17,335 nt of DNA, from the NCBI GenBank assembly GCA_038858525.1, contig JAWCFL010000004.1, positions 84,451 through 101,785 on the forward strand, in the 5' to 3' direction. The stretch comes from Candidatus Jordarchaeales archaeon (lineage in GTDB: Archaea; Asgardarchaeota; Jordiarchaeia; Jordiarchaeales; Freyrarchaeaceae). A program made the translations under genes and the position numbers. This document shows positions 1,590 through 2,073 of the stretch, in pieces. How positions within the stretch are numbered: the stretch's first letter is position 1; each line of letters opens with the position of its first letter. The notes under the pieces are model-generated. The model was not told the DNA's origin. It saw only the letters and a program-made list of their open reading frames with translations, and made no database searches.

Positions 1590-2073
1590 TTACCTGGGGG
1601 GGTCGCCTGGGGCCTGCCTGCTTTCAGCCACAGGTTCATTCACTTTCCTCGTTTTTAAGAGGTTAGGACCAAGATCCATCAACTTCTCACTCATCTTTCT
1701 CGCCATGTCCGCGAAGTATCTGCCCTCAGCCGAGGAACAGTAAACCATTGTCACCCTCTCCGCACCCAGCCCCATAAGCTCCAACAAGTCCTGAACCATC
1801 TCGACATGTCTCGCCGCCATAATGTTTCCGTTTTCAAACTCGCACTCGCCAACTCGTCACCCGACAATCATTACGCCGTCCGCCCCTTTCCAAAGTAGTC
1901 TAGCTATCAAGTCCGCTGAAACTCTACCGGTGCACGGCACCCTTATCGGTCTAAGTGTGGCAGGGTACTGCGACCTCATTGTTCCAGCCATGTCAGCGGC
2001 ACCATAACCTCATTTCCAGGGGCGTGACACGCCCTTTCCAGCAGAGGAAAGCCCCTATTTTTGGGCTACTCAC
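1590..2073 (-). CDS. mvhD: MvhD/VhuD hydrogenase/Hdr-associated [2Fe-2S] subunit, selenoprotein; proposed join(2073..2036, 2013..1590), 153 aa with Sec at codons 14 and 65
   Basis: GTG at 2073 with upstream GGAGG. After removing 2014-2035 the frame reads MSSPKIGAFLCWK(UGA)GYGAADMAGTMRSQYPATLRPIRVPCTGRV...GADGVMIVG(UGA)RVGECEFENGN...GLGAERV, matching the MvhD motifs CxxCxYxxAD, RVxCxGRV and GADGVxxxGCxxGxC. The ORF track shows only the C-terminal 76 aa. Confidence 0.9.
1857..1859 (-). other. In-frame UGA, putative selenocysteine (MvhD U65)
   Basis: Sits in GADGVMIVG-UGA-RVGEC, the position of the conserved Cys in GADGVxxxGCxxGxC; the frame is conserved on both sides. Confidence 0.9.
2010..2012 (-). 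other. In-frame UGA, putative selenocysteine (MvhD U14, CxxU)
   Basis: Aligns with the second Cys of the MvhD N-terminal CxxC and is followed by GYGAAD. Confidence 0.85.
2014..2035 (-). other. Candidate 22-nt bulge-helix-bulge mRNA intron in mvhD
   Basis: Minus-strand RNA reads CUGG AA|A GGGCGU GUC ACGCCC CUGG AA|A UGA. It has a 6-bp intron stem, a 4-bp central helix CUGG/CUGG (C-G, U.G, G.U, G-C) and two AAA bulges. Cutting after the second nucleotide of each bulge removes 22 nt and restores the reading frame. Confidence 0.65.

Follow-up and report, generated by a model that had tools for sequence, protein, structure and literature searches.

A candidate bulge-helix-bulge intron one nucleotide before a selenocysteine codon in the mvhD gene of an Asgard archaeon

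The window analysed here is a 17,335-nucleotide stretch of a metagenome-assembled genome (positions 84451-101785 of contig C4; assembly G000, 2.09 Mb in 63 contigs, 92.7% complete). Its host, which an earlier note made from the sequence had guessed to be an Asgard archaeon, does belong to this group, in the class Jordarchaeia (= Freyarchaeia). The minus strand of the window carries an operon of the order hdrA-mvhD-frhB-like (Table 1), and the position of hdrA directly upstream of mvhD fits the FlpD/MvhD assignment of the second gene. This gene is broken between two reading frames. Read without interruption, its first frame gives V S S P K I G A F L C W K, then G R V T P L E M R L W C R and a TGA at 1995-1993, that is, a product of 26 residues, and the frame of the downstream part begins with AAA TGA GGT TAT at 2015. 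The downstream part matches the Pfam family FlpD (PF02662) over profile positions 8-123 of 123 (E 9e-39, 132.7 bits vs a cut-off of 22.3), and the upstream one accounts for no more than profile positions 1-7 (KIGAFLCW). We consider it highly probable, judging from genome and metagenome DNA, RNA folding, comparison and the literature, that the hdrA-mvhD-frhB-like transcript contains a bulge-helix-bulge (BHB) intron, the 22 nt between the two parts (2035-2014), which is spliced by the endonuclease EndA and the ligase RtcB.

The RNA of the region reads CCUC-U-G-CUGG-AAA-GGGCGU-GUC-ACGCCC-CUGG-AAA-U-GAGG. The central helix and both 3-nt bulges of its fold conform to the definition of a BHB, and the outer helix represents a slightly relaxed form (CCUC/GAGG and a G.U pair, with one bulged U). 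The archaeal splicing endonuclease EndA cleaves BHB motifs 3' of the second nucleotide in each bulge. This canonical rule excises exactly 2035-2014 and leaves TGC TGG AAA TGA GGT TAT, encoding C-W-K-U-G-Y, where U is selenocysteine (Sec); the spliced junction computed in this way is CTGCTGGAAATGAGG, with the exon end ...CTCTGCTGGAA joined to ATGAGGTTATGG. Several choices of cut position lead to this product, since AAA is repeated. The frameshifting 22-nt insert, the 26-residue unspliced product, the fold and the junction had all been claimed in the earlier note, and every detail is present on the minus strand. Relaxed BHB geometry occurs at a frequency of 1.9e-4 among the position-and-length combinations of the whole G000 genome, so that its appearance by chance in a given insert is unlikely. 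No other copies of the predicted intron or of its hairpin were found in this genome, and a mobile mini-element was rejected as an explanation, both being single-copy.

Table 1. Genes, predicted introns and structural elements; positions without a contig name refer to the window
Feature	Position	Strand	Size	Details
mvhD	2073-1590	minus		second gene of operon, between hdrA and the frhB-like gene
mvhD exon 1	2073-2036	minus		GTG 2073-2071 behind Shine-Dalgarno sequence GGGAGGA; V S S P K I G A F L C W and first two bases of Lys codon
Predicted mvhD intron	2035-2014	minus	22 nt	third base of bulge 1, hairpin GGGCGU-GUC-ACGCCC, CUGG (3' strand of central helix), first two bases of bulge 2
mvhD exon 2	2013-1590	minus		last base of Lys codon; Sec codons TGA 2012-2010 and TGA 1859-1857; stop TAA 1592-1590
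Whole hBHBh'-like motif	2047-2008	minus		outer helix, central helix, two bulges, inner stem
Outer helix	CCUC 2047-2044 with GAGG 2011-2008	minus		plus G2042.U2012; U2043 bulged
Central helix	CUGG 2041-2038 with CUGG 2019-2016	minus	4 bp	two G.U pairs in G000
Bulges	AAA 2037-2035 and AAA 2015-2013	minus	3 nt each	on opposite strands
Inner stem	GGGCGU 2034-2029 with ACGCCC 2025-2020	minus	6 bp in G000	loop GUC
Candidate EF-2 intron	C4:81118-81146 (L074:619-647)		29 nt	3.3 kb upstream of window; GTP_EFTU profile 2-80 / 82-187
Candidate ppsA intron	C1:42657-42676 (L075)		20 nt	PPDK_N profile 2-113 / 115-317; SSASAED/LPGASFAGQQ
Candidate pcm intron	about C1:145116-145146 (L076)	minus	31 nt	PCMT profile 2-59 / 61-208; GQTISAP/HM
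Insert in G220, G243			31 nt	family f9, genus g10; before mvhD Sec codon
Insert in G282, G285, G286			30 nt	family f9, genus g64; in frame
Insert in G295			31 nt	family f29; folded singly only, not in f9 alignment
lokiSECIS-like element	1639-1603	minus		AUGA 1639-1636, 9-10-bp stem, 11-nt loop GAAAGCAGGCA, GA 1604-1603; overlaps mvhD 3' end
hdrA	4012-2087	minus		upstream gene of operon; probable AUU start 4012-4010; Sec codon TGA 3430-3428 (FPTNDCAI-U-ILGP); stop TAG 2089-2087
FrhB/FdhB-like iron-sulfur protein gene	1587-514	minus		third gene of operon; TTG near 1539 may be true start

The Jordarchaeia are represented in our collection by 11 species genomes, which fall into the family f1 (the host genome G000 and G001-G004, in two genera) and its sister family f2 (G005-G010). 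An insert is present at the identical nucleotide of mvhD in all five f1 species, 22 nt long in G000, G001, G003 and G004 and 21 nt in G002, and the variants of G003 and G004 recur in three metagenome contigs from other samples, in independent assemblies. Folded singly, each of the five orthologues adopts the same BHB architecture as its minimum free energy structure, with an inner stem of 5-6 bp. The stem positions that differ retain pairing: U-A is replaced by C-G in G001, G-C by A-U in G004, and C-G by U.G in G002 and G003. On the intron side of the central helix the 3' strand is CUGG, CCGG or CCAG, and it pairs with the coding CUGG in all five species, the helix being wholly Watson-Crick (CUGG:CCAG) in G002 and G004. 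In the five-sequence alignment 97.3% of the cells are paired, vs 36-51% when the partners are slid by 1-3 columns; two pairs are changed on both sides and three further changes are one-sided and compatible. The comparison of mvhD in sister genomes that the earlier note had proposed thus reveals covarying inserts at the same site in the whole family, and what is seen is not the strain-private lesion with an intact paralogue elsewhere which, according to that note, would have told against splicing: the insert occurs in five species and the paralogue is only 46% identical.

Both exons bear the marks of translation. A Shine-Dalgarno sequence and a start codon precede exon 1 in G000-G003, with ATG at the same place in the orthologues, and the codons K-I-G-A-F-L-C-W-K of this exon differ between species almost solely at synonymous third positions. 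For the spliced coding sequence the ratio of non-synonymous to synonymous substitution rates (dN/dS) is 0.03-0.20 between f1 species, at dS values that range from about 0.4 to 1.9 or more and are saturated. Since this selection acts in the spliced frame, both exons appear to have been translated in one protein since before these five species diverged. The junction itself is found ready-made in intron-less homologues. An uninterrupted F-L-C-W-K-U-G-Y-G occurs in all six species of f2, in the Sec-type paralogue that each f1 species has and in 84 of the 135 genomes of another Asgard family. The DNA of such homologues, TTY YTN TGY TGG AAR TGA GGN TAY GG, is the junction predicted from the BHB; in the f2 species and the paralogues it is TTC CTC TGC TGG AAA TGA GGx TAY GG, and the f2 orthologues share TGC TGG AAA TGA GG exactly with the predicted G000 junction.

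Three further mRNAs of the same organism seem to be interrupted in the same way, those of EF-2, ppsA and pcm, and in each of them the Pfam profile match resumes behind the insert where it had left off (Table 1). The EF-2 insert, with a central helix ACGU/GCGU, bulges AGA and AAA and an inner stem of 9 bp, splits the motif GHVDF, and the canonical cut yields LIDTPGHVDFTGH and restores this universal motif. The gene is single-copy in the G000 assembly and its unspliced frame stops at a TAA within the insert. A protein search with EF-2 exon 2 returned full-length relatives (733-734 aa) as well as shortened ones (636-642 aa); the full-length ones lie on long DNA contigs and are therefore intron-less alleles rather than products of spliced RNA. 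Taken together, the EF-2, ppsA and pcm cases would make the removal of BHB inserts from mRNAs a necessity for the organism, and they constitute the strongest indirect support for the splicing of mvhD. The ppsA and pcm inserts came from a genome-wide BHB scan of G000 that produced 75,736 relaxed candidates; these two alone were confirmed from its list, and the purS/purQ and purF/purD candidates were rejected as gene boundaries.

The enzymes that such splicing calls for are encoded in the genome. G000 contains two open reading frames (ORFs) with an EndA domain (PF01974; 110.7 and 80.6 bits; 193 and 198 aa), at C3:81835-82089 and C43:5978-6235, and one RtcB (601 bits) at C1:35280-36587. The Asgard EndA has been described as an (alpha-beta)2 enzyme with an L1 loop linked to a broad substrate range (PMC5829648), and the G000 enzyme is presumably of this broad-specificity alpha-beta type, assembled from two paralogous subunits. 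ARAGORN recognised only 11 tRNA genes in G000. This low number is to be expected if most tRNA genes are disrupted, and introns are reported for 92-95% of those of Freyarchaeia, often at non-canonical positions and often several per gene (PMC11291895). The BHB-intron reading put forward in the earlier note has thus been strengthened by conservation with compensatory changes, by dN/dS of 0.03-0.2, by the uninterrupted f2 junction, by the presence of EndA and RtcB and by the EF-2 case.

In the mechanism that we propose, the coding sequence of the pre-mRNA would contribute the outer helix, the 5' strand of the 4-bp central helix and most of the bulges, and the hairpin and the opposite (3') strand of that helix would come from the intron. 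EndA would cleave both 3-nt bulges between their second and third nucleotides and the exons would be ligated by RtcB, which would recreate the Lys codon and bring the CxxU motif C-W-K-U into frame; the spliced message would then be translated into a 153-residue MvhD with two selenocysteines, decoded with the SECIS-like element (a selenocysteine insertion sequence) at its 3' end. Cleavage and ligation in the cell, the identity of the enzymes and the exact cut sites are what we infer here, unlike the geometry, its conservation and covariation, the selection, the match of the predicted junction to intron-less orthologues, the presence of the enzymes and the parallel cases in the genome.

Several observations weigh against this interpretation. 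Splicing of mvhD is predicted from DNA sequence. The fold energy is unexceptional (z = -1.3 in G000, -1.1 to -2.6 over the five orthologues), the outer helix is short and imperfect (4 bp and a G.U pair, with a bulged U), and the central helix of G000 contains two G.U pairs. With only five sequences the shuffle control of covariation is weak, 35 of 500 shuffles reaching the observed level. The inserts of G002 (21 nt) and of genus g64 (30 nt) do not shift the reading frame, which therefore does not by itself call for their removal. Finally, the search of the genome for genes rescued by BHB excision, suggested in the earlier note, gave a divided answer: ppsA and pcm did emerge from the scan list, but the ORF-rescue filter of the G000 candidates showed no excess over decoys in which the excised length was shifted by 1-2 nt. 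The lack of an excess can be attributed to ordinary gene boundaries, which dominate an ORF-rescue scan, and no total intron count was derived from it.

Among the other explanations, ribosomal recoding deserves the closest attention, either as a hop from the Lys codon AAA to the second AAA past the hairpin or as translation of the insert with a +1 frameshift. The take-off and landing sites are identical in G000 (CUGGAAA ... CUGGAAA), a stable hairpin lies directly after the take-off codon and, as AAA is repeated, the proteins made by a hop and by BHB splicing would be identical. We nevertheless regard recoding as very improbable. No stop codon follows the take-off codon, and in the orthologues the second copy drifts to CCGGAAA, CCAGAAA and CCAGAAG, changes that improve the pairing with the coding CUGG and so serve the helix and not a landing site; the insert, when read in frame, is not conserved as protein and contains a TGA in G003. 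The other inserts of the genome point in the same direction, since the BHB rule restores GHVDF in EF-2, where a codon-matched hop from GUA to GUA would put N in place of D (GHVNF), and the inserts of ppsA and pcm have no matching end codons. Retention of the insert is, in our view, extremely unlikely as well. Translation could start downstream, at the GTG at 2030-2028 or at the ATG at 1991, and yield an MvhD without its first Cys behind a leader hairpin, or the in-frame variants could encode a loop of 7-10 residues; an in-frame GTG does exist within the G000 insert, and the inserts of G002 and genus g64 are multiples of three. However, this GTG is missing in G001 and G003, and KIGAFLCWK as well as U-G-Y-G-A-A-D, which spans the distance from the insert to the ATG at 1991, evolve synonymously, so both are translated. 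An insert within C-W-K-U would moreover break the CxxC/U motif that is intact in every intron-less homologue, and the insert varies in a manner that keeps RNA pairs rather than residues.

That mvhD is simply a decaying gene, with the insert as a disabling lesion and reliance on other mvhD paralogues, is a view to which we give hardly any credence. G000 does possess five other FlpD-domain genes, one of which (C1:84419-84787) has two UGA codons and no insert. Yet this paralogue coexists with the insert-bearing gene in all five f1 species, and decay does not account for one and the same lesion in five species at saturated dS with purifying selection in the spliced frame, nor for the maintenance of the Shine-Dalgarno sequence, the start codon, the Sec codons (with Cys at site 2 in G003) and the SECIS-like element. 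An assembly or sequencing artefact, which a metagenome-assembled genome in 63 contigs might invite one to suspect, has next to no chance of being the explanation, given lineage-specific variants of the insert in five species and in three contigs of other samples.

Inserts at the identical nucleotide of mvhD were also encountered outside the family f1. A pattern of both exon ends with a gap of 12-42 nt, run over 400 Asgard genomes, identified six genes in two families (loci L088-L092 and L103), with exons of the form KI(L/I/A)AFLCW / KUGYG(A/S)(G/A)DMAGTIRAQ; L081 and L082 from the same search were rejected as chance matches, and inserts of 43-90 nt at this site, sought in the same genomes, gave chance matches only. 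In family f9 the BHB lies in the same register as in the Jordarchaeia, with an outer helix of UCCUC-U-G with U-GAGGA, bulges AAU and AAA and an inner stem of up to 10 aligned pairs; the central helix UUGG with ACAA comprises three pairs and a G.A mismatch, and in G286 (CUAA) four pairs including one G.U wobble. Among the five aligned f9 genes 87.4% of the cells are paired, vs 35-51% with slid partners, and five pairs are changed on both sides. The G285-type locus recurs in two JGI metagenomes, and gene callers report only a 52-aa FlpD fragment there. The gene order of the window, hdrA-mvhD-frhB-like, is shared by the G285 locus and is seen at the distant Asgard locus L104. Most genomes of families f9 and f29 are intron-less at the mvhD site, so the distribution is patchy, and the intron sequences of f1, f9 and f29 are unrelated to one another. 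The pattern may go back to a single old intron that was lost many times, or introns may have been gained repeatedly at this site.

The location of the inserts may have a simple structural background. Half of a BHB motif, CCUC...GAGG and YUGG, is already contained in the mvhD exons, and its GAGG strand is owed to the UGA followed by GG. The position of the intron beside the Sec codon may accordingly reflect this exon-encoded half motif, without any link to Sec decoding, and the pairing of the UGA in the outer helix looks like a by-product of the coding sequence (CCUC...UGAGG); the suggestion of the earlier note that splicing could gate selenoprotein expression found no support in the data analysed. 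As a tentative proposal, which we think may well prove wrong, the sequence CCUC-UG-YUGG-AA/A-UGAGG could act as a proto-splice site at which unrelated BHB introns (21-22 nt in Jordarchaeia, 30-31 nt in the two other families) were gained independently at one nucleotide, within a genome-wide habit of mRNA splicing, and splicing could control the Sec-type HdrA-MvhD module. If true, this would be the first recurrent site-specific gain of protein-spliced mRNA introns. Instant gain by a 7-bp target duplication was rejected as a route: G000 alone has the perfect CTGGAAA repeat, C replaces T at the second position of the 3' copy in the remaining four f1 species, for which reason the repeat is most simply taken as derived in G000, and the inserts of ppsA, pcm and family f9 have no flanking repeat of the CTGGAAA type.

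The selenoprotein character of the module was examined by comparison. Its UGA codons occupy Cys positions of CxxC and GC motifs and are exchanged with Cys among species, and a UGA in the C-W-K-U motif is found in about 100 Asgard homologues. In the N-terminal CxxC of HdrA the second Cys codon (3982-3980, minus strand) is TGT in G000 and G003, TGC in G004 and TGA in G001 and G002. The lokiSECIS, which serves HdrA-VhuD pairs, consists of AUGA, a stem of about 9 bp, an 11-nt apical loop and GA (PMC4989117). The similar element at the end of mvhD is kept in all five orthologues, with covarying stems as judged from alignment and folding and with an extended apical part in G004; an invariant CCCCCC/GGGGG hairpin around the mvhD stop codon comes after it. 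A search against Rfam gave no match for the lokiSECIS-like element. As to the Sec machinery, SepSecS (TIGR03531) is present in G001-G004 and in G006 (448-518 bits); the G000 assembly, which is 92.7% complete, yielded no match, and the gene probably resides in the missing ~7% of the genome. The best selB match in G000 is below the cut-off. The best match to a tRNA-Sec in this genome (C12:55570-55679, or L072:1501-1610, minus strand) was rejected, as it is a long-arm tRNA-Leu with the anticodon UAA, and this tRNA-Leu carries a 37-nt insert in its D-arm region.

Full-text searches of the literature returned no report of BHB introns in Asgard protein-coding genes, and the only further mRNA substrate of the endonuclease that they yielded was HVO_1309 of Haloferax. 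The statement of the earlier note that validated coding BHB introns are essentially limited to cbf5 thus agrees with the searchable literature, and the mvhD intron very probably joins the class of coding-sequence BHB introns otherwise documented there for cbf5 only. The intron in the cbf5 pre-mRNA of Crenarchaeota (Watanabe 2002; Yoshinari 2006; Yokobori 2009, PMC2738675) is, like that of mvhD, a short intron in coding sequence bounded by a BHB; both have a patchy distribution of gain and loss, and both presumably depend on a hetero-oligomeric tRNA splicing endonuclease and a ligase. Splicing of cbf5 has been shown experimentally, whereas that of mvhD is a prediction. The mvhD intron differs in its host group, the Asgard class Jordarchaeia, in its gene, an energy-metabolism selenoprotein within a polycistronic operon, in its smaller size (21-22 nt) and in its place one base before a Sec codon that is part of the outer helix; it also appears to be one of several such introns in the genome.

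The non-canonical tRNA introns of Freyarchaeia and Atabeyarchaeia (PMC11291895) and of Thermoproteales resemble the mRNA inserts (20-31 nt) in size class and in the relaxed hBHBh' form and imply the same enzymes, and those of Freyarchaeia come from the same lineage as the mvhD intron. What sets mvhD apart from them is the mRNA host, in which the exon half of the motif is codon-constrained and the intron half alone carries the compensating changes. The HVO_1309 mRNA of Haloferax volcanii (PMC7714728) likewise presents a BHB to the endonuclease, but what is reported for it is cleavage, while in mvhD the removal of the intron would restore an interrupted frame. Lokiarchaeota possess HdrA-VhuD with a shared lokiSECIS (Mariotti 2016, PMC4989117), and the likeness to the window includes the tandem order hdrA-mvhD, the very short spacer, several UGA codons at Cys positions and, where mvhD ends, an AUGA / 9-10-bp stem / 11-nt loop / GA element. 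In contrast, no intron is reported in the lokiarchaeal VhuD (PMC4989117), and in the window the SECIS-like element shares sequence with the 3' end of the coding region, and the operon continues at once with a third gene. Bypassing in gene 60 of phage T4 shares with mvhD a hairpin after a repeated take-off codon and a gap that is not a multiple of three. The resemblance ends there: mvhD has no stop after the take-off codon, its repeat is not conserved, its BHB pairing is, and the other inserts lack matched codons, so that mvhD does not appear to be a case of bypassing of the T4 gene 60 type.

Asgard archaea are the group closest to eukaryotes. The same splicing device seems to interrupt an electron-bifurcation selenoprotein of the Asgard HdrA-MvhD type, a translation factor (EF-2), ppsA and pcm. 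Should RNA data bear this out, the splicing of mRNAs by protein enzymes would belong to the ordinary course of gene expression in the lineage, and gene callers would systematically shorten the genes concerned, such as EF-2 (annotated as 'partial' or with 636-642 aa vs about 733) and mvhD (a 52-aa fragment). The gain and loss of mRNA introns would then become open to study in a simple system defined by structure, and mvhD, with inserts that recur at a single nucleotide in three Asgard families, offers a test case for the origin of such introns.

The window was also searched for further introns, with no convincing candidate. One possibility lay at the start of hdrA, where a TAG-bearing hairpin, CTAAAAGGGTTTTAG, occupies 4039-4025 of the minus strand; it was rejected as a second intron. 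The gene has no in-frame ATG, GTG or TTG downstream of the preceding in-frame stop, and all five f1 species have kept an in-frame ATT, at the identical codon or the one next to it. This ATT is closely preceded by in-frame stops in G003, G004 and G000, and by GGAGG at a distance of about 8 nt in G000 and G003. The hairpin is not conserved and the ATT is kept, which makes an AUU start of hdrA more likely than a second intron.

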